A program made the position numbers and the translations under genes. DNA of 60,514 bases, the filler included, from Dugesia japonica (lineage: Eukaryota): assembly GCA_001938525.1 (NCBI GenBank). It is 5 parts of 5 records of this genome, joined end to end, with 100 filler letters (N's around TTAATTAATTAA, not from the genome) between each part and the next. Parts side by side here need not be neighbours in the genome. Positions count along the whole stretch, not along the records: positions 20,714 to 33,947 come from MQRL01509380.1; 4 more parts are not named here. One strand, given 5' to 3'. The stretch's first letter is position 1; each line of letters begins with the position of its first letter. This document shows, in pieces, positions 3,193 to 34,047 of the stretch. The notes beneath the pieces were generated by a model. The model made no database searches, was not told the DNA's origin, and saw only the letters and a program-made list of their open reading frames with translations.

Positions 3193-4240
3193 ATTCTATT
3201 AACAGTCTAAAATTTAATACAATAATTTAGTTTAATTGACTGATTTGATTGAGTATTGTATTAAAATACTACTAGTTATATTCACTTATTTACTCTTTTC
3301 ATTGATCTACTGAAACACATGAGCTTATTGCGCATTTTTACTTTATCACATTGGTTTTATTGAAACACATTGATTTCTGTGTTACATGGGCTTTACCGTC
3401 TCCTACTGATTTTCTGAAATACATTGGGTTTACTGTGTCATATTTGCTTACTCTATCCACTTGTTTACTGTATTTACTGGCTTTAGTATCCCTTGCTAAA
3501 ATCTGTGAAATTTATAAAACTTAGAGAAATTAAGGAAATTAGTAGAAATTAGACAAATTCCAATAAATTAGTTTACATTTTAATCACGGGTCTATACATT
3601 GTAATGTAATTACTTGTGGACTTAGTAATGTTTTTAGTAAATCTTTATAAATTTATAAAATCNNNNNNNNNNNNNNNNNNNNNNNNNNNNNNNNNNNNNN
3701 NNNNNNNNNNNNATTCTATTAACAGTCTAAAATTTAATACAATAATTTAGTTTAATTGACTGATTTGATTGAGTATTGTATTAAAAAACTACTAGTTATA
3801 TTCACTTATTTACTCTCTTCATTGATTTACTGAAACACATGAGATTATTGCGCATATTTACTTTATCACATTGGTTTTATTGAAACACATTGATTTGTGT
3901 GTTACATGGGCTTTACCGTCTGCTACTGATTTACAGAAAAACATTGGGTTTACTGTGTCATATTGGCTTACTATATCCATGATTTACTAAAACTCATTGG
4001 TTTTTCTGTATCATATCGGTTTTCTGTACTCTATCTACTTGTTTACTGTATTTACTGGCTTTAGTATCCCTTGCTAAAATCTGTGAAATTTATAAAACTT
4101 AGAGAAATTAAGGAAATTAGTAGAAATTTGACAAATCCCAATAAATTACTTTACATTTTAATCACGGGTCTATACATTGTAATGTAATTACTTGTGGACT
4201 TAGTAATTTTTTCAGTAAATCTTTATAAATTTATAAAATC
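3193..4240. repeat. Tandem duplication (~3193-3662 and 3713-4240) around an N gap, containing a degenerate minisatellite (cattgatttactgaaaca-like)
   Basis: Direct near-identity on both sides of the gap. The second copy has extra minisatellite units near 3975-4030. Confidence 0.8.
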
Positions 4241-24310: not shown

Positions 24311-25220
24311 AATCATTAACATCAGAATTCAACTCCATAAATTTATTAAAATAAAAACTATGTTTTACACTATTTTGTTTATTTAAACAAATTAAAAGCA
24401 TGTGTTTTCATTAGTGATCATTTTTCCAAATCGAAAACTGTACTTTATTTATTTAAATTTGATTTAATTTATTTCAAACATTTTATTTATTTATTTAAAA
24501 TTTAAGACAAATTTTTTTTTAAAAAAATTTTATTTATTAAAATTTACTTTATTATCCAATAATCATAATGGAATTCAAATGAAATTCCTCAAGAGATCAA
24601 TAGTATATATGTTTCGAGTAAATGTATTTATTTATTTTATTATTTAATATTTTCATTTAGGAGCCTCTGAAGATACAACGATTTACTTATAGTGTGTTGA
24701 TATCCGACATTGGTTCCAAAAACATGAATATTTTGAATTTATTATTCCAAAGAGTTGAACCAACAATTAAAATAAAGGATACAGTTTTCATCAATTTCAA
24801 TGATTCAAAATCGACAGTATTTGAAAAATTCCAACAATATATGATCCAGGTGGAAATACAGAGTCGAGAAAAATGGAAACAACATTAATTCAATTAATAG
24901 AAAAATTAACTCTCCAATTTAGAAAATTCGAGACAATTTGTAAATGTTGCTATTATAATAAATGTTATTTATTTCTTTGTCTTTTTAACTAAATCTATTT
25001 AAATCATTATATTTAAAAAGATTTACATATCAAATTAACTAAATAATGACTATCAAATAATAATAAGAATAAACTATTTAAAATAATAAATGAATCTTGA
25101 TATCAAATAAATTACTTAAAAACTATTAAATAATAACAACTATCAAATTAAATAAAAACTTTATTATAAATAACTAGCAAAGTAACTACATAAACAAGAA
25201 TCAATTATAATAACAAAAAT

Positions 25221-25516
25221 TTATTTAATCAAATTTATTAGCTTCTCAAGGAGCATATAACTACATCTGTAACACTCGTAATGGAAGCGTAGATATAGCT
25301 CTTTATAATAATCTTCTAATACTTTTTGGTAGTCTTCTTTTTTCAGGACCATTCTTTTTCTAAGTAAAATGATTGCGATAATATCTGAAAATAAAAATTA
25401 TAAATAATGAATAAAAAATTAAATATAACCTTTTTCATTAATCAGATCCTCCGGCCATCTGATTCTGCTGATTAAAGACAAGTTTTTTAAATCTCCTTGA
25501 TTTGAAATGTAGACAT
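25221..25516 (-). pseudogene. Small two-exon orphan gene remnant beside the Polinton ATPase
   Basis: ATG at 25516 and a 45-bp AT-rich GT..AG intron at 25429-25385. Exon 2 reads IIAIILLRKRMVLKKEDYQKVLEDYYKELYLRFHYECYRCSYMLLEKLINLIK*. Exon 1 contains stops. Confidence 0.4.
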
Positions 25517-25551
25517 TTTTTAAATTAACAACTGATTAAAATGAAATATTT

Positions 25552-25767
25552 AATGTGTTATATACAATTCTCTGTTTTACACAAATCGATCAAGATCAAA
25601 CAATTGTCGATTTTCTAGCATGATAGGGCTATCCTAATAATAGACAATTTCTTATTGAATCATTTCAAGATGCAACATTAAATTCACATGGCTATATTTT
25701 TCTCGACTTTACACAACAATTTCCAGACGAACTGAGGATGAGAACCGATATTTTCAATCCTGTATAA
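25552..25767 (+). pseudogene. Polinton/Maverick A32/FtsK-like packaging ATPase, C-terminal remnant
   Basis: YPNNRQFLIESFQDATLNSHGYIFLDFTQQFPDELRMRTDIFNP matches the conserved 'F...DAT..P(H/Y)GYL..D....P...RLRT.IF' end. Confidence 0.8.
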
Positions 25768-26032
25768 ACAAAATAAGTAATTATTATACTATTAAAATGA
25801 CAAAATTTAAGGAAATTGTAGTTGATCATATCAAAAAAATTCTTAAAATGAAGAAAGGTAAATGATCAAAGCGTATTGTAAAAAAGGAAAAGGGTGGAAA
25901 CCGGAAACAAAGTAAACATTTGAACATTTTTAAGAAACATTCGAAACTGTATGGTAAGAAAATGCCGAACGTAAACGTAAAATGAACATCATTATAAACA
26001 AATATGGGTAAGTTATATTATTAAAATATAAA

Positions 26033-26340
26033 ATGAATTTATAACAAAGTATTCCATTTTTATATCATTAATTCAATCTTCAAAATTGGCGATAATACAA
26101 ATTTTGAAATAATTTCCAACATTTTTTATGGATGATTTTATTGAAATTGTTATAAATATTATTTGCAAAAATGTAAATGTGAGTAATGCCAGAATAGAAG
26201 TATTGAAAAAACATAAAAGAAAGCTATTAACACTTGTAAAAATAAAAATTAGGAAATTGATGAGACGAGTAATACGAGATAATACGAGGCTTTATAGCAG
26301 CATAACTACCAATTGCCTTAGCAACACTAGGATTAACTCA
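26033..26340 (+). pseudogene. Small conserved Polinton/adintovirus core protein
   Basis: IEIVINIICKNVNVSNARIEVLKKHKRKLLTL, then in a shifted frame RGFIAA*LPIALA (GGF-xx-LLP-like). Lies between the ATPase and the integrase. Confidence 0.6.
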
Positions 26341-26489
26341 TTTCGAATAAACAATTGATTGTTTTATAGAAGTATTATAAGGATAAACTCATTCAAAATA
26401 AACAATGGGTGGTTTCCAATCATTACCTAATTTTGATTTCAAATTTTCATCTTAATTGTTGTAATTGGCAAACTAAAGACGAAATGGAC

Positions 26490-26825
26490 GGATGCAGAAA
26501 ATCCCTCAGGTTTTCGTGGCGTAGAAAAATAGATGAAAGCTGCACAAAAAAACAAAGACCAAAAAGTGGTTATCGGGTCAACTAGCGTACAAGTTTGAAC
26601 AAACCATTGTTGAAAAGATTTCCTACAAGGGCATATAAAATGTTTGGTATTGATGATTTATGGCAAATGGAATTGATGGATATGATCACGTATTCAAAAA
26701 TAAATAAAGGATACAAGTATATTTTGACATGTATTGATGTATTCAGTCGATTTGCAAGAGCTATTCCAGTCAAATCAAAATCCGCTAATGATATGGAACG
26801 GACAATTAAGTCAATTTTAAAATTA
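26490..26825 (+). pseudogene. Polinton retroviral-like integrase, N-terminal part
   Basis: ENPSGFRGVEK...KPLLKRFPTR...GIDDLWQMELMDM...NKGYKYILTCIDVFSRFARAIPVKSKS. Similarity ends at ~26825. Confidence 0.92.
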
Positions 26826-27309
26826 AAAATTAAAGCGAATAACTGTTATCATTCTGATTATATATTCTATTCCAGAAGATATATAAATGCATATTTTTAG
26901 TAAATTTATTATATATAAACCATTTTGTTTGGAAAAACCCCTTTACACCAATTCATTTAGTTAAACATTAAAACTAATTCAACTTAAACAAACAAAAATT
27001 CATCATTTTAACACAAAATATAAACCAATTACAGTATAATATCAATTTATAAAAAACCTTAGTTAAACCATTATTTGTATTTAATTTTTTCAAAAAATGA
27101 GGTAGATTAGTTAAATTTTATTTACATTTTGTCTTTTAATAAAACTCAAAACCAATTACCAAAATTTTAAGTTAAATTATTACATTTTTATCAAAAAACA
27201 TTAAAATCATAATTTTCTTACTCTTTAATTGACTCTTTACCTCTTTTTTTTACATCTTTACATCTTTACATCTTTAAAAATTCATCTAATCAATTACTAA
27301 ATACTTAAA

Positions 27310-28520
27310 ATGTCTACTAGAATCGAAACATTTAAAAAACAATTTTCATTTGTTGAAATTTATTTTTCAAGAATTAAACCCACTTCAATTGAAATTCTTA
27401 AATCAAGTTTAGATCTTATTATTAATGAAATTGTAACAGATATTAAAACAGAAAAAGTAGAAACTAAACTTGAAGAATTAGAAACTAAACTTGATAAAAT
27501 TGAAAAAGAATACTCTGAAGTTTCTAATTCTAAAATAAAAAATTAATATTGAAGATTCTGATTCTGATTCGGAATTAGATCTTGAAGCTTTAATAAATAA
27601 ATAACTTGAAGCCAGTTTTTATAAAATGGAAAGTGAAAATATTCAATTTAATCTTTCATTTTCTGAAGAAGGTATATGGTTGTAAAAGAAAATATTGAAG
27701 TAATTGATAAACCAATCCCTAAAAGTCCCATTATTGAAAAAGTTGAAGTTGAAAATAAAAGTGATTCAGATGTTGAAAATGAATTAGAAGTTGAAGTTGA
27801 AATTCCAACAACCTTTAAAGAAATTACAACAACTTCTAAAAAATTTGTAAAGTGTTCCAAGAAAACAAAAAATAAAGTTTCAGTATTAAAACAAAATAAA
27901 ATACTAGTATTAAAACAAAAAGGAACAAGTACAAATATAAATCAGAATAAAATAACTCCTTTTTCACAATTGGAAAAAGATGTTATTAAAAGAGGAAAAC
28001 TTGATAGAAAAGAATTTGTTCCTTTAGAAAGTGATGATGATATTTTTCAAGTAGATTAGATTTTAAGCAAGAGTTTTTAAGATCTTTCAATTCAAAACCA
28101 TTTCATTCAGTTATTTTAAAAGAAGAAGCAAATAAAAAAATTTTAAGTGTTTGTGAATTTTCTTCAGATACTTACAAATCATTTGATAGAAAAAGAATTA
28201 CTGAAGAAATTTATTATTGGGATGAAGTAATAACTAAAAGTAAACAAATTAGGTTAATTGGATATTCTAAATTAGGCAAATTATTATCAATTTTAAAAGA
28301 ACAATTTAATAAAAATTCTGATTTTAAAAATTATTTATCTGGAAGAGAAATTCGTTATTCAGAAAATTATATAAACAGATTAATTAGATTTAGTAATTTA
28401 GTTGATAAGTTTCCAAAACTAGTGACAAGTAAATTTTCTTTTTACAAAATACATAATAATTTTAAAAAATTGAAGAAATTATAGATGAAGAAATTAAAAA
28501 TGAAAAAGAAAATTAATAAA
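27310..28520 (+). pseudogene. Orphan ~400-aa protein broken by stops and frameshifts (coiled coil, acidic linker, globular C-terminus)
   Basis: ORFs 27310-27546 and 27676-28059, plus an unlisted frame ~28110-28485 (IYYWDEVI...FKNYLSGREIRYSENYINRLIRFSNLVDKFPKL), share strand and composition. Confidence 0.55.
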
Positions 28521-28541
28521 ATAAAAATAGGATAAAAAAAT

Positions 28542-28571
28542 AAAGCGGTTCACAAGTGTACCGTTTTTTTT
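28542..28571. terminator. Hairpin plus T-run downstream of the + strand orphan gene
   Basis: aaagcggttcac-aa-gtgtaccgtttttttt. Terminator function is inferred. Confidence 0.35.
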
Positions 28572-28911
28572 AATTTAAAACAACTTTAAAAATTAAAAAA
28601 TAAAAAAGTAGTTACCAATAGATAAACAAATATTAGTAATCTGTTTTTATTTTCCACAAAATTTGAAACTTCTTAAATTTATAAAACATATTTTCTAAAG
28701 TTTTCTAAAAGGAAATTATTAAAAAGAACAAGTTTATTCTTATCTTTAATTTTTTTAAATTAAAACAAGTAAGAAGTTTTATAAACCTGTGACTGCAGTC
28801 ACAACTTTAATATTAAAATTTCAACAAGCAGAAAAAGGTAAAAATAGATATATCCTTTATTTACAACTTTAATATTAAAATTTCATCAAATTTCAAAAGA
28901 AAAAAGATGTT

Positions 28912-29442
28912 TTAGTTTCTATCTGCATCATTTATAATATCTTCAAACATCATTCTTCCAGTTTCATTTTGATTTTTTCTTGATTTCTTATTTTTTAAAT
29001 TTGAATTGGGATTACTTGAAATGGAATTACTTTTTAATTTTATTGATGTAAAATTATTTCTTTTATCAGTTAAAGTATATTTGGGTAAAACTTCTATCAA
29101 TTCAAAATTATTTGTTTTAACATTAAAAACATAATCTACATAATTATTTTTAATAAATTTATTTGTTTGTTCATCAAAAGAATATTTTACTCTTGGATAT
29201 CTTTTTACTAGTGGTTTTAAATTTAATTCCCTTAAAGTTTTATTTAATTTTCGAATTGTAATACCCATTTCTTTAGCAATAGCAGAATCTTTTAAATTTG
29301 GTTTTTTAAAATTCAATTCTTGATATTTTTCAACTAAATAAATTTTCTGGGATTTAATTGATAGTGACTCATCAAAAGTATTTGCACAATCAATTGAATC
29401 ATTAATATTAACACTCAAATCTTTTCTACTTTCCATTTTCAT
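28912..29442 (-). CDS. HTH-containing orphan protein
   Basis: Intact 176-aa ORF. PNLKDSAIAKEMGITIRKLNKTLREL is a classic HTH pattern, and the C-terminus is basic. Confidence 0.65.
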   Translation of the reverse strand: MKMESRKDLSVNINDSIDCANTFDESLSIKSQKIYLVEKYQELNFKKPNLKDSAIAKEMGITIRKLNKTLRELNLKPLVKRYPRVKYSFDEQTNKFIKNNYVDYVFNVKTNNFELIEVLPKYTLTDKRNNFTSIKLKSNSISSNPNSNLKNKKSRKNQNETGRMMFEDIINDADRN

Positions 29443-29680
29443 TAGTAAAAAAATAAGAATTTATAAGTGGAATTATATTTTCTAATAAATTTTGAATTAT
29501 ATAAACAATTATATATGGAATTGCAATTGGAATTAAACAAACAATTAGACAAATGATAATAACTAAAAATATAATTAAATTTTTTTGTTGTTCAAATAAT
29601 TTATTTAAGTTAATATAATTATTTACAAAACTATGCATTTCTTTAGTATTAATCTCTTTAGTATTTATTTCCCTAGTCAT
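29426..29680 (-). CDS. Small membrane protein
   Basis: 84 aa with the hydrophobic run LIIFLVIIICLIVCLIPIAIPYIIVYII. Overlaps the start of the HTH ORF. Confidence 0.5.
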   Translation of the reverse strand: MTREINTKEINTKEMHSFVNNYINLNKLFEQQKNLIIFLVIIICLIVCLIPIAIPYIIVYIIQNLLENIIPLINSYFFTNENGK

Positions 29681-29693
29681 TTTGTAAAAGAAA

Positions 29694-29925
29694 TTATTGA
29701 ACTGTTTGTTTGATTTTCTTATTTAGTTTTCTCATTGTATCTTTTATTTGTTTATTTTTAATATTATTATTTTTGATTTTACTTTTTAGCTTTTCATTTT
29801 GGCACTTCGTTTGCGTCAGTTCAATTTTATGATTTTCTAATTCACTTTGTAATTTATTAATTATATTATCAGCTAAACTAATTGCTTGTTTATATAATCC
29901 AAACTTTGGGTAAATTTCCTGAATA
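29694..29925 (-). pseudogene. Coiled-coil protein C-terminus joined to the truncated PolB by a deletion
   Basis: LADNIINKLQSELENHKIELTQTKCQNEKLKSK shows heptad pattern. Confidence 0.45.
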
Positions 29926-32900
29926 ATGAATTTTATGCTTTCCTGGTATTTCATTATCCATCTGATTATAAATAAAATCATAAATTATTTCTTTAGCATA
30001 TTCTAAAATAGTAAATCCTATGTAAGGAAATTTATTATATTTTAATTTAGTTTTATAAAGATGAACTGCTGCTATTTGAACTTCTGAAGGTCCATGGGCC
30101 TCTGTAAATATTTTACTAGATTTAAAATGAATTTTACTTGCAAACTTTTGATAATCTTTATCGTTATCTACAATTTCGACATTACATCTATTTCTAATAT
30201 TTTCTAAAGTTTTCCCATAAAAAGCATTTTTTAATAATTTAAAGAATACATCCCCAAAACATCGTTATTTCTTTTAGCTTCATTTCTTTGATTGATATTA
30301 AATTCTATATAATCTTTTAACCAAGGTTTTGTTGGCATTTTATATTTTGTATGGATTTTTTTAATTTTAATCTCTAGAGATAAATACAAATCTAAAGTAC
30401 TTCCTAAAATAATATCATTTTGTTTATCAAATTGATTCAATGTTAATTTAGTATTTTTCTTGGATAACTTTTTACTAAAGCTTAATTGATAAGGTGCTAA
30501 CATTTTTTTTGTAATATTTAAAGGATCTGGTGCTAATGGAAAGTATTTAGTTTTTTCATGGATTTCTTTTGGATATTCTAAATCAACTTCATAAACATAA
30601 TTAATATCTTTAGTTGATTTAGTTTAAATTAAATCCTTACATTCATAGATTTCACCTGTTGGTTAAGGTTTTGTCATAGAACTAGTATACAAAGAATTTT
30701 CATCTAAATAGTTTAAAAATGTTTCTTCTTTCCAATTTGTTGGTGGAATTTTATTTTTAATAAATAAAAATAATATATCTCCAACTTGTGCTTTGTTAAA
30801 TTGTCTAGTTCTTTTAAATCTATTATTCGATTTTTGATTATTGGAAAATACTTGTCTTTCACCACAAACACCAGAATAACCACCCTTAACTCCTCTTTCT
30901 ATTTTAATAACTCTATCATAAGTTTCTTTTTGTGCATATTTTAGTTTTACTTGAGTAAATTTCATACCAGCATTCCAAGTTAATCCTGGAGCTGAATAAC
31001 AATAACTTGGATCAATTTAATAAATATTTAAACATGTTTCTCTAAACTTTTTAAAGTAATTAGCTAAAATAAATTACATCTAGTTTCATGTAATGTAACA
31101 TTTATTCCCATAAATTATTGAATTGATTAAAATCTTGTAAAAATTCATCCTATTCTTGATCATTTATTTGTTTTTGTCTTAATATTTTATCAAAATCTTG
31201 TTTCGATGAAATTATTTCTTTTTTTAATAATTCAATTGCTTGATTAATATTTTCTCCTTAAACATATCCATAAGGAAATTGTATTTTCTTTGGTTTTAAA
31301 TTAAAAGATTTTAAATGATTATATTTCATTTAATGTTTCACCCATTTTCTCAACTGAAGTTTGTGTACACATTCTTGCTGAATCTAAAAATCAAATATTT
31401 TCATATTGAAAAGAAATTTTAACTTCATCTGAATGTGGAATTATCTTTTTAACTTTCCCTGGATATTTACTAATTAATTCTTTAAAAAATAAATGATTAT
31501 CGTAACCTAAAGCATTGTGAAAATATAAAGGCATAAATACATTTTTTATTGATTTATCTTGTAAATTACATTTTGAATGAGTATAACCTCTGAATTCCCC
31601 ATTAAAGTGATCGTGATCCAAAACTAGTTTTTCATTTTTTGTTAACTCTTTATCGCAATATCTGGATTTAGTTCCTTGCTCAAGTTTTGGTTTCTCACCC
31701 ATATAAATAGGATTTAATTTATTTTCTTTTATATCTTTTAATTTAATATTTAATTCATTTAAAAATTCAAAGAAATCTTCATGAACACTTTCACCTGAAA
31801 ATGCTTTGTATTCAATTTTTAATTAACTGTTGATATTTACTCACTACATAAATTCCTAATGATAAAGATTTTTGTTTCTTTGTGTTAATATTAGTCCAAC
31901 TTTCGAAATCAGCATCAACTACAAATGGTATTTTATTTTTGTAATAATAATTTTGATAATAATAACTAGAATGTTTAGAAAAAACTATATTACTAATTTC
32001 ATGATTTATACATTCATTTTGGTGTTTAATTAATAAATCTTTATTAGAATAACAATTCATACATCTAATACATAAATGATTATGATGTTTGTTAATTGTA
32101 TAAAATATTTGTACATCTCTACATAAAATAAAATGATTTTTATAAACTAATAAATTACATTTATTCTGCTCTACTCTGGGTTTAGTTTCATAATGTGAAA
32201 TATATAAAGGTTCAAGTTGTTTAGACTCGGTTACAAGAAATACATTTATTTTCCATTCATTTAACTTTTCAAATTTTTTCACATAATCAATATTTACTGG
32301 AAATTTAATTCCAGTTGTTTTTAACTCATCAAAATAAGGAATATATTTTTCTACTCTAGTTTGATGATCTTTAAATACATGTTTATGAGCTAAAATTGAA
32401 TATAAAAAACATTTTTCATTTTTATTTTCAATATTAATTACTCCTTGTTTAATAAAAGGTAAGATAAGATAATTTCCCTCCAGCTAAAGATTGATATTTT
32501 GATAATTCAATTTTAAAATCTACGATATAACTTAAATTCCATCCACTTTCATTTCAATCTTCATCTTCCATAAATCTTTGAAGTTGATTTAAAATATCAT
32601 TGACACCTTCATTAATTTCACTTACTAATGTATATTGCTTATTATTCGAATACGAATTAAAAATTCTTTCAACATTTTCACCGTTTACATCTTTATTATA
32701 ATTACAAATAACATTCATTCGAACAATAATCTTTTTCCCATAATTGAAATATTTGGTAATTATTTCTAAGATTTCAGATTGAAATTCATTAATCATTTTT
32801 ACTGGTATTTTCAAAGATTCAAGATTTCTAGTTAATTTAACTTTACTTTCTTTAAAATATTCAATTTCATAATCTTTGTAAATTCTGAAGATATCACGAA

Positions 32901-33060
32901 TTTCTGGATCGAAATGAATTACTTCTTCTCCAGGTAATTCATCAAATAATATTTGATTAACCATTTCTTTATGTTTATTCGAATTGAAATGTGCTTTTGC
33001 ATGATTTTGACTTGCAAAATTTTTATTGCAAATTTCACAAAACTTTCTCTGAATTACCAC
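29920..33060 (-). pseudogene. Protein-primed family B DNA polymerase (HNH/endonuclease VII-containing type) with N-terminal C2H2 zinc finger; frameshifted, motif C lost
   Basis: C2H2 finger FCEICNKNF...HFNSNKH; GVINIENKNEKCFLYSILA; ExoI ADFES; DHDHFNGEFRGYTHSKCNL; ExoII FHNALGYDNH; motif A YLDENSLY; motif B NAFYGKT; YIGFTILEYAK. Confidence 0.93.
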
Positions 33061-33191
33061 AATTAGTGGAATTCAAATAGATCTAAAAATAGATCTAAAA
33101 GTATTTAAACATTTTAAACAAGTTAACATTGCTCTGTTTAAAAGACGAAATTTCGATCTAATATGAGCTGTTAGACCTGATTTGTTTTTAA

Positions 33192-33294
33192 AAACCTTTT
33201 TGCAAAGATTATTTGGACAAAAAAGAATAAACACTATTATGTAAAATGGCATGGATATTAAAAATCTACTTGGTTAGTTAATAATGACATCTAA
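33192..33294 (+). pseudogene. Chromodomain C-terminus of the Polinton integrase
   Basis: KIIWTKKNKHYYVKWHGY*KSTWL fits chromo YxVKWxGY...xW. Its stop overlaps the start of the penton ORF. Confidence 0.75.
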
Positions 33295-33906
33295 TAATTT
33301 TTATACACTTTTACTTAGTAATAGCTGTCATTTTATTCATCCAAATCATAATGCTAGTAAATTCATTGTTGAGCTTCAAAATCCGATTTATATGGATGGT
33401 AGTTGGGAAGTAGCATTGTTGNNNNNNNNNNNNNNNNNNNNNNNNNNNNNNNNNNNNNNNNNNNNNNNNNNNNNNNNNNNNNNNNNNNNNNNNNNNNNNN
33501 NNNNNNNNNNNNNNNNNNNNNNNNNNNNNNNNNNNNNNNNNNNNNNNNNNNNNNNNNNNNNNNNNNNNNNNNNNNNNNNNNNNNNNNNNNNNNNNNNNNN
33601 NNNNNNNNNNNNNNNNNNNNNNNNNNNAAACATTGGGATTAGAAAAACAAAAATATTCTCATGCAGAATTGAAAGATGGTATATTGCAAGGTATTAGAAA
33701 TCCGAAAATAATTAAGTTCCATCAACATATGTTCATCTATAGTAGTATTGTTGAATCAATAATTGTAGATGTTAAAGTTCATCTTTTGAAATCGTTATGA
33801 ATAGAAAATTATGAAACTGATGAAGTAATACAAAAAATAATTGATAATCCATTATATTTACCGATTGCAACATGTATAAACAATATAGAAATTAATATTC
33901 GTAATG
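33284..33906 (+). pseudogene. Polinton/adintovirus minor capsid (penton) protein
   Basis: FYTLLLSNS...PNHNASKFIVELQNPIYMDGSWEVAL and, after the gap, MFIYSSIVESIIV...DNPLYLPI...NNIEINIRN. Cut off at 33907. Confidence 0.85.
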
Positions 33907-33947
33907 AGTAGGTAGATAGTGGCGCACTGGATCACTTGCATGGCGCT
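33907..33947 (+). mobile_element. Polinton-like left terminus interrupting the penton gene
   Basis: agtaggtagatagtggcgcactgga is the exact reverse complement of 10127-10151. Confidence 0.7.
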
Positions 33948-34047
33948 NNNNNNNNNNNNNNNNNNNNNNNNNNNNNNNNNNNNNNNNNNNNTTAATTAAT
34001 TAANNNNNNNNNNNNNNNNNNNNNNNNNNNNNNNNNNNNNNNNNNNN
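33948..34047. other. Artificial assembly linker
   Basis: N44-TTAATTAATTAA-N44. Confidence 0.95.

Follow-up and report, generated by a model that had tools for sequence, protein, structure and literature searches.

Architecture of the locus

The window, the whole stretch of DNA analysed here, comprises 60,514 nucleotides of the Dugesia japonica assembly GCA_001938525.1, in five parts joined end to end. It contains a decayed Polinton/Maverick gene set, hereafter element A. As assembled, an insert of ~6.4 kb lies between the N-terminal part of its integrase and the chromodomain, carrying on the opposite strand a zinc-finger/HNH protein-primed family B polymerase (pPolB) together with orphan ORFs. 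The source of the insert is hereafter element B. The features, with plus and minus denoting strand, are:

25549..25758, plus: element A packaging ATPase, C-terminal third; first 131 codons absent, 2 stops
25806..25949, plus: element A small basic ORF remnant; 36% identical to the same-position ORF of locus L016, low score
26059..26332, plus: element A conserved small ORF upstream of the integrase; 3 breaks, 36% identical to an L025 ORF
26464..26822, plus: element A rve integrase residues 1–121 (PF00665); 3 breaks, terminates at the left junction
26823..27309, no strand: insert, non-coding and AT-rich, adjoining the left junction; GC 0.19, no terminal inverted repeat (TIR) or target-site duplication (TSD) partner found
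27310..28484, plus: insert, convergent orphan, split into three ORFs that comprise a coiled coil, an acidic linker and a helical C-terminal domain; GC3 0.05–0.09
28912..29442, minus: insert, 176-aa ORF; weak helix-turn-helix (HTH_Mga, E = 0.02)
29426..29680, minus: insert, 84-aa ORF; one strongly hydrophobic segment (19-residue hydropathy 3.6)
29694..29916, minus: insert, coiled-coil ORF; adjoins the pPolB break, by position against the end of pPolB homology
29917..33219, minus: insert, pPolB pseudogene; two C2H2 fingers and an HNH/endonuclease VII insertion, ~14 stops or frameshifts
33220..33291, plus: element A integrase chromodomain tail; 1 stop, begins at the right junction
33284..33910, plus: element A ORF after the integrase; 42–46% identical to an L013 ORF, N gap at 33,422–33,627
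33948..34047, no strand: artificial scaffold linker; remainder of element A outside the window

The interval from 22,760 to 33,421 is free of N gaps, and the scaffold of element A stops at 33,947, closed by the artificial 100-nt linker. Elsewhere the window is rich in N gaps, linker-joined scaffolds and sequence duplicated across gaps.

Element A retains two genes expected of a Polinton/Maverick, each in part. The packaging ATPase survives as its C-terminal third, 54–56% identical to the ATPases of related loci L025 and L011 over residues 132–199 of 209; the L022 homologue matches Pox_A32. The rve integrase (PF00665, E = 1.7e-6, under the gathering score) has lost its core: beyond 26,822 (residue 121 of about 345) homology breaks off, and about 190–200 codons are gone before the chromodomain, itself a weak match to PF00385 (E = 0.016) that also matches the integrase C-terminus of the same relatives. 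The integrase N-terminus is 81–87% identical over ~77 aa to the best 6 of 147 matches, and residues 1–121 are 80% identical to P0157 and 73% to P0159. The conserved small ORF upstream, which we take to be PZ/cupiennin-like, has matches in L012, L013, L015–L020, L025, L029, L039, L041 and L042. The ORF after the integrase has a homologue in 16 of 38 integrase loci and, by its position and a motif, is presumably a penton/minor capsid gene; a Pfam search of this ORF and the related-locus proteins gave no match for the penton-position ORF. Two hexon queries found no capsid gene in the insert or the remaining window, and there is no major capsid or protease match, nor a second pPolB, elsewhere in the window. 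The ends of element A, where TIRs and a 5–8 bp TSD would be expected, were not located.

The insert polymerase

The protein-primed family B polymerase of the insert is a pseudogene without its DTDS motif. It is 40% identical over 811 residues to P0154, which itself matches PF03175 (E = 2.8e-22), and it samples a little-known subfamily with N-terminal C2H2 fingers, whose nearest known relatives are ~40% identical. On the minus strand, the fingers lie at 33,219–33,154 and 33,042–32,968, and the HNH/endonuclease VII insertion at 31,681–31,559 (Endonuclease_7, E = 6.4e-6). At one end the gene is cut inside the first zinc finger, and at the other its homology ends at 29,917–29,920, directly before the catalytic DTDS.

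Like the nematode/oomycete pPolB2 (HNH) class, the window pPolB has an HNH domain within the polymerase. Such insertions are common: the HNH piece by itself matches 2,751 clusters at E ≤ 0.001, and Endonuclease_7 matches occur in the pPolBs of L001, L006, L034 and L036, which are capsid- or operon-bearing elements. The pPolBs of L051 and L008 have no Endonuclease_7 match at E ≤ 0.01. As L051 lacks the match and the L022 contig holds the C-terminal part alone, the domain is seen in two of four operon-linked pPolBs.

The accessory ORFs of the insert matched nothing in the searches run. They have no protein homologues among 52 candidates, reach only E ≥ 0.002 against PHROGs, give unnamed or weak matches in the Atlas, have no match in 57 loci and are unlike the genes that precede the ATPase in L013, L015, L022 and L025. 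The three pieces of the convergent orphan are probably a single frameshifted gene; its single-sequence model is helical (pLDDT 61), and fold searches with it were negative (top Foldseek E = 0.6, top Z 6.5). Atlas HTH matches of the 176-aa ORF at 0.89–0.91 are leads only, and a search of viral contigs for its gene context yielded 0 of 59 candidates. The coiled-coil ORF is probably the 5′-truncated tail of a gene.

Junctions and breaks

The left junction lies at 26,822. The right junction is better set at ~33,220 than at 33,192, because the minus-strand zinc finger (PF00096) begins at 33,219 and DNA identity to related loci picks up again at 33,223–33,227; an integrase alignment beginning at 33,205 requires a 3-codon gap. 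Each flank is 70–81% identical at the DNA level to the same set of loci. Four abrupt joins fall inside 8 kb; at three of them the break either has coding sequence on its two sides or interrupts a conserved gene.

Neither inverted nor direct repeats bracket the insert, as they would an autonomous replicase module or a transpoviron-like element: at its ends no TIR or TSD exceeds chance, with an inverted match of at most 9 nt against a control mean of 10.3 and a direct match of 6 against 6.7 (200 random pairs). The left junction bears no recognisable remnant of an element B terminus. No integrase, ATPase or capsid gene lies within the insert; with both of its ends broken, the absence of a capsid gene is not informative.

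A preliminary description of this DNA had reported most of this layout. Its split integrase without the central catalytic part, its opposite-strand zinc-finger/HNH pPolB, and its coiled-coil, membrane, HTH (here a weak signal) and convergent plus-strand ORFs are all borne out, as is the lack of a capsid gene in the insert, which carries no information here. Of its junctions, ~26825 agrees with ours and ~33192 is moved. It overlooked the truncation of the pPolB before DTDS, the position of the coiled-coil ORF against that break and the start of the ATPase at residue 132 of 209.

Composition and decay

The flanks have a third-position GC content (GC3) of 0.217 (85/392), the pPolB one of 0.114 (106/933) and the orphans one of 0.091 (62/678); the insert is compositionally homogeneous and distinct from its flanks. 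Flank and pPolB differ at P = 2e-6 (Fisher), an optimistic value given that codons within a gene are not fully independent. The ratio of pPolB to operon GC3 is 0.52 here and 0.91–1.35 in all six calibrating elements, and five relatives of the flanks have GC3 of 0.19–0.25. The right flank alone, at 0.179, does not differ from the left (P = 0.14) and differs only modestly from the pPolB (P = 0.027), so it could be part of B or of a third copy. Decay does not separate the parts significantly: the flank has 11 breaks over 1.4 kb, the pPolB 14 over 3.3 kb (P = 0.13).

Related loci and trees

The order ATPase, small ORFs, integrase and penton is colinear in L010, L011, L013, L015–L017 and L022; downstream of the penton, where the contig reaches, related loci carry a small ORF and then hexon-like and protease-like ORFs. 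A pPolB is included in 3 of 38 integrase-related metagenome loci, all three of the window pPolB class, and one complete viral contig also pairs this class with the gene set. The class occurs with the operon type in L022, L034, L036 and L051, where the pPolB lies upstream on the operon strand, whereas the window pPolB is internal and on the opposite strand. None of the contigs of the closest integrase relatives (70–87%) included a pPolB. L022 is a single point at 58% identity in the integrase N-terminus, and its C-terminal pPolB piece is 31% identical, which is background.

In the pPolB tree (FastTree, 33 hand-picked rows, 913 columns, midpoint root), the window sequence groups with P0154 and P0010 with support of 1.0, apart from the pPolBs of L034, L036 and L051. 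The integrase tree, built on only 77 columns, is weakly supported. For the gene context of P0154, viral contigs yielded 0 of 1 candidates and genome contigs 0 of 22. Alignment A5 contributed 10 loci, of which only L052 lies within the wider pPolB clade, holding the polymerase alone, and from integrase alignment A4 came one weak prokaryote match and, for viral contigs, 0 of 57.

Origin of the insert

We consider it likely that a fragment of Polinton B is lodged in Polinton A, that both are dead and that four or more break-joins have trimmed them. GC3, the orientation of the pPolB and its place in the tree indicate two separate elements of origin. Element A would contribute the ATPase, small ORFs, integrase and penton in native order, and a 6.4-kb piece of B, with the pPolB and accessory genes, would have ended up inside the A integrase in reversed orientation. 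The likelier route is that the whole of B integrated into A and host deletions followed; alternatively, a templated patch at a double-strand break may have brought in the fragment. The break-joins would have taken the start of the A ATPase, the A integrase core together with the start of the B polymerase and all beyond it, the end of the B polymerase, and any left terminus of B. Nothing in the locus is capable of replication or integration.

The main competing account needs only one element, in which a pPolB-orphan block from upstream of the ATPase moved, inverted, into the integrase through three breaks and end resection. Relatives do carry this pPolB class upstream of the operon type, in the four loci named above, which is half of what the preliminary description had said would reduce the locus to a simple rearrangement; the other half fails, with the orphan ORFs in 0 of 57 loci and unlike the ORFs upstream of the ATPase in the four relatives compared. 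The loss of the 5′ part of the ATPase, where the upstream block would have joined, and levels of decay that do not differ significantly fit such a move, and combinations of one PolB class with the virion operon of the other have been described (bioRxiv 10.1101/697771, in the part available). A twofold GC3 gap beyond the range of six calibrators, the distance of the L022 pPolB (31%) and the need for three simultaneous breaks make it unlikely all the same. An assembly artefact, in which a fragmented short-read assembly merged pieces of different repeat copies, is also improbable. The many N gaps, linker-joined scaffolds and sequence duplicated beside gaps invite it, and the four joins within 8 kb are known from the assembly alone, but 22,760–33,421 is gap-free, the joined pieces have no common repeat at the junctions for an assembler to collapse, and the copies appear old and diverged and so would be near-unique sequence. 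In 7 of 12 sequencing runs (three studies, one coded organism), 0.20–0.29 of the words of 24,500–33,400 were present, a share of the whole interval without positions.

It is distinctly improbable that B is a true pPolB module, without capsid and integrase, that moves into Polintons, or that it is a stage in polymerase exchange, perhaps HNH-aided. Its distinct and homogeneous composition and its lack of capsid, ATPase and integrase would suit such a module, and autonomous replicase modules have been proposed, as speculative, in the accessible part of bioRxiv 10.64898/2026.10.13.758929; there, however, a DDE integrase accompanies the pPolB modules. Here both ends are broken without bracketing repeats, the polymerase lacks its start and DTDS, and an intact replicase with its own integration gene is not what the insert holds, with ~14 breaks and no integrase. 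The insertion destroys the element A integrase, leaving a dead-end product, and HNH insertions are common and also found in capsid- or operon-bearing elements. The preliminary description's second pPolB element, nested or recombined, has support from GC3, tree and orientation in so far as two origins are concerned; its terms replicon and cassette are not supported, given the broken ends and polymerase, the missing TIR and TSD and the lost catalytic motif. Nor is its suggested snapshot of module swapping supported: in a nematode-type swap the pPolB and the remainder of the element both stay intact, here the integrase is destroyed, and this pPolB class is seen with the operon type in related loci. 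The broader proposal is very improbable: that B stands for an animal lineage, hitherto undescribed, of zinc-finger/HNH pPolB modules that lack capsid and integrase, bear HTH, membrane and helical orphan genes, insert into Polintons and feed polymerase exchange, this copy being a decayed example. If the B clade were indeed capsid-less and mobile, it would offer a testable animal case for the autonomous-replicase hypothesis.

A fragment of B lodged in A would most likely be ordinary decayed nested debris, neither a new mobile element nor a polymerase swap in progress. The locus demonstrates neither swap nor autonomous module, and its importance is modest: it would be one more fossil case of two Polinton lineages overlapping physically in one genome, the raw material assumed by accretion-and-deletion models of Polinton mosaicism. 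A literature search of titles and abstract openings, with incomplete coverage, returned none describing a Polinton nested in another's integrase.

Comparison with known systems

Like Polintons/Mavericks (animal adintoviruses), as far as the available part of bioRxiv 10.1101/697771 describes them, the locus has an rve integrase with chromodomain, an A32-like ATPase, a minor capsid position and a pPolB; unlike them, its polymerase lies inside the integrase, in opposite orientation, and all parts are broken. The same part of that source records degraded endogenous copies and hybrids of an Alpha PolB with a Beta-class virion operon. An Alpha/Beta assignment here would follow by analogy from L001, which pairs the window pPolB class with a PLA2 gene. 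The nematode pPolB1/pPolB2 swaps, in what is available of bioRxiv 10.1101/2023.08.22.554363, replace the gene in full-length elements with all polymerase motifs kept. They share with the window an HNH insertion in a Polinton pPolB and a polymerase history apart from the rest of the element; by contrast, the window integrase is destroyed and motif C is lost. The mobile modules of polisuvirus and transpoviron-like type are repeat-bracketed, with pPolBs accompanied by DDE integrases, in the accessible portion of bioRxiv 10.64898/2026.10.13.758929, and the window insert has neither. That portion also describes polisuvirus insertions as tandem or multi-replicase and degraded, and proposes accretion and deletion as a route to mosaicism; what the window shares with them is degraded endogenous elements that overlap each other.

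Structure of the interrupted integrase

The locus lies within the scaffold at 20,714–33,947, in an AT-rich window (16–36% GC per kb). The integrase of the flanking Polinton, hereafter element A, has an N terminus that matches PF00665 and has 147 relatives, the top six 81–87% identical. Its homology stops at 26,822, at residue 121 (versus approximately 345 amino acids in full-length relatives), and picks up beyond the insert within the chromodomain, bearing out the preliminary description of an integrase split by an insert with a protein-primed family B polymerase (pPolB). The right junction falls at approximately 33,220, because DNA identity to related loci returns at 33,223–33,227 and the first of the zinc fingers in the minus-strand pPolB starts at 33,219. 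Approximately 190–200 integrase codons are absent; judging by position in relatives and the DDE fold, these would include the second and third catalytic residues.

The insert, whose source we call element B, encodes a pPolB that carries an endonuclease VII/HNH domain as well as two C2H2 fingers. It also contains coiled-coil, membrane and weak-HTH ORFs, plus a convergent orphan split into three. Immediately downstream of the HTH ORF, 28801–28924 is a tandem duplication of 62 nt (71% identical). Frameshift-aware alignment places 11 breaks in the pPolB against its relative P0154 and 12 against P0010, 13 of them distinct, and a further stop lies between the two fingers. Homology stops at 29,920. 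Of 24 aligned relatives, 23 continue with DTD at this point and the other is a degenerate copy, so the polymerase lacks motif C and everything after it. Its 5′ end is cut within the first finger and abuts the codons of the chromodomain, which leaves no space for a start, a promoter or a terminus, and a search for terminal repeats at both insert ends found none above chance level. The flank is broken too: the left-flank ATPase starts only at residue 132 of 209, and the flank has 11 breaks in 1.4 kb versus 14 in 3.3 kb of polymerase (P = 0.13). With at least four break-joins within 8 kb, the lack of a capsid gene in the insert is uninformative.

Surrounding sequence

Separate scaffolds are joined by four identical artificial 100-nt linkers at window 11374, 20614, 33948 and 43418 (each a 12-mer, carrying stops in every frame, between two runs of 44 N), so adjacency across them is not real. 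Reverse transcriptase and mariner-type remnants mark the region as rich in transposon debris, which together with the short introns would fit an invertebrate host.

1249–2562 and 3193–4240: direct repeats of 214–300 nt (94–100% identity) flanking 50-N gaps, probably unmerged contig overlaps
18655–19620, 34894–35412 and 36648–36857: remnants of reverse transcriptase in two places (PF00078) and part of a mariner-type transposase (PF01359)
20961–22905, minus strand: several short ORFs (64–96 aa), three ubiquitin-like in appearance by eye; no Pfam match, and no resemblance to each other or to the rest of the window
23700–24400, minus strand: degraded ORF pieces adjoining the Polinton remnant on its left, which from a motif we take to be like gypsy-type gag; the sole Pfam match is weak and unrelated
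24570–24890 (plus) and 25227–25500 (minus): by eye, two seemingly spliced gene fragments whose GT-AG introns measure approximately 45 nt; no Pfam match in the pieces scanned

Origin of flanks and insert

The flanks are one ordinary operon. Among 38 loci recovered when an alignment of 12 relatives of the integrase was used to scan metagenome contigs, the ATPase or small upstream ORF was matched in 20 and a penton-like ORF in 16, and the gene order of the window recurs in L010, L011, L013, L015–L017 and L022. Two tandem penton-like ORFs lie downstream of the integrase in the flank relatives L009 (1432–3475), L010 and L011.

The insert probably derives from a different element. Third-position GC (GC3) is 0.217 in the flanks but 0.114 in the pPolB (P = 2e-6 for this pair), and the orphans have 0.091. 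The ratio of pPolB to operon GC3 is 0.52 versus 0.91–1.35 in six calibrating elements; five flank relatives have GC3 of 0.19–0.25. L022 is 58% identical to the window in the integrase and 31% in the polymerase piece, and in a tree the window polymerase clusters with P0154 and P0010 (support 1.0), apart from those of L034, L036 and L051. Against a two-element origin stand the intermediate GC3 of the right flank by itself (0.179), the absence of a polymerase of element A itself among the loci recovered and further contig scans for B's gene neighbours, which gave no informative context. The orphan ORFs had matches in 0 of 57 loci. We regard internal rearrangement of one element as improbable. Of the second pPolB element proposed in the preliminary description, the separate origin is supported by GC3, the tree and the orientation, but the reading as a cassette or replicon is not, the insert being a broken fragment. 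Misassembly is slightly less probable; the sequence is free of gaps from 22,760 to 33,421. It is very unlikely that the insert is a genuinely autonomous module or an intermediate of a polymerase swap, and it failed the tests run for such a module, having no bracketing repeats, intact replicase or integrase.

The layout and lesions are directly observed. As to the order of events, the most likely route would be integration of a whole element B into A's integrase, with later deletions taking B's termini and virion arm together with A's integrase core; alternatively, a templated patch could have formed at a break.

Comparison with known Polintons

Only 3 of the 38 integrase loci include a pPolB (L022, L034 and L036). 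In each, it belongs to the same broad class as the window pPolB and lies upstream of the operon on the operon's strand, and the complete viral contig L051 has the same pairing of pPolB class and operon type. Endonuclease_7 was found below gathering score in the L034 and L036 pPolBs and was not matched in that of L051, while the L022 locus covers just the C-terminal part of its pPolB; the L034 and L036 integrases are distant (31–39%) and their gene order differs. This class also occurs with the other, PLA2-bearing operon (L001), and there are 2,751 cluster-level relatives of the HNH/exonuclease piece. A polymerase of this type is thus widespread, and finding one with this type of operon is nothing foreign. 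The pairing agrees with the hybrid elements reported in bioRxiv 10.1101/697771, and may map onto its Alpha/Beta names. Broken Polinton pPolB pieces also occur on prokaryote-MAG contigs (L053, L054 and L057), accompanied on L053 and L057 by pieces of integrase; this is probably eukaryotic contamination.

The locus is a real but ordinary Polinton fossil, and a capsid-less mobile pPolB lineage is very unlikely. Nematode Polintons are reported to have exchanged polymerases (bioRxiv 10.1101/2023.08.22.554363), but those swaps are in full-length elements retaining every polymerase motif, whereas the window pPolB lacks motif C. bioRxiv 10.64898/2026.10.13.758929 treats overlapping degraded elements and accretion-deletion, and proposes autonomous replicase modules speculatively; judged by bracketing repeats, replicase and integrase, the locus falls outside the modules, and it fits the degraded-overlap class.
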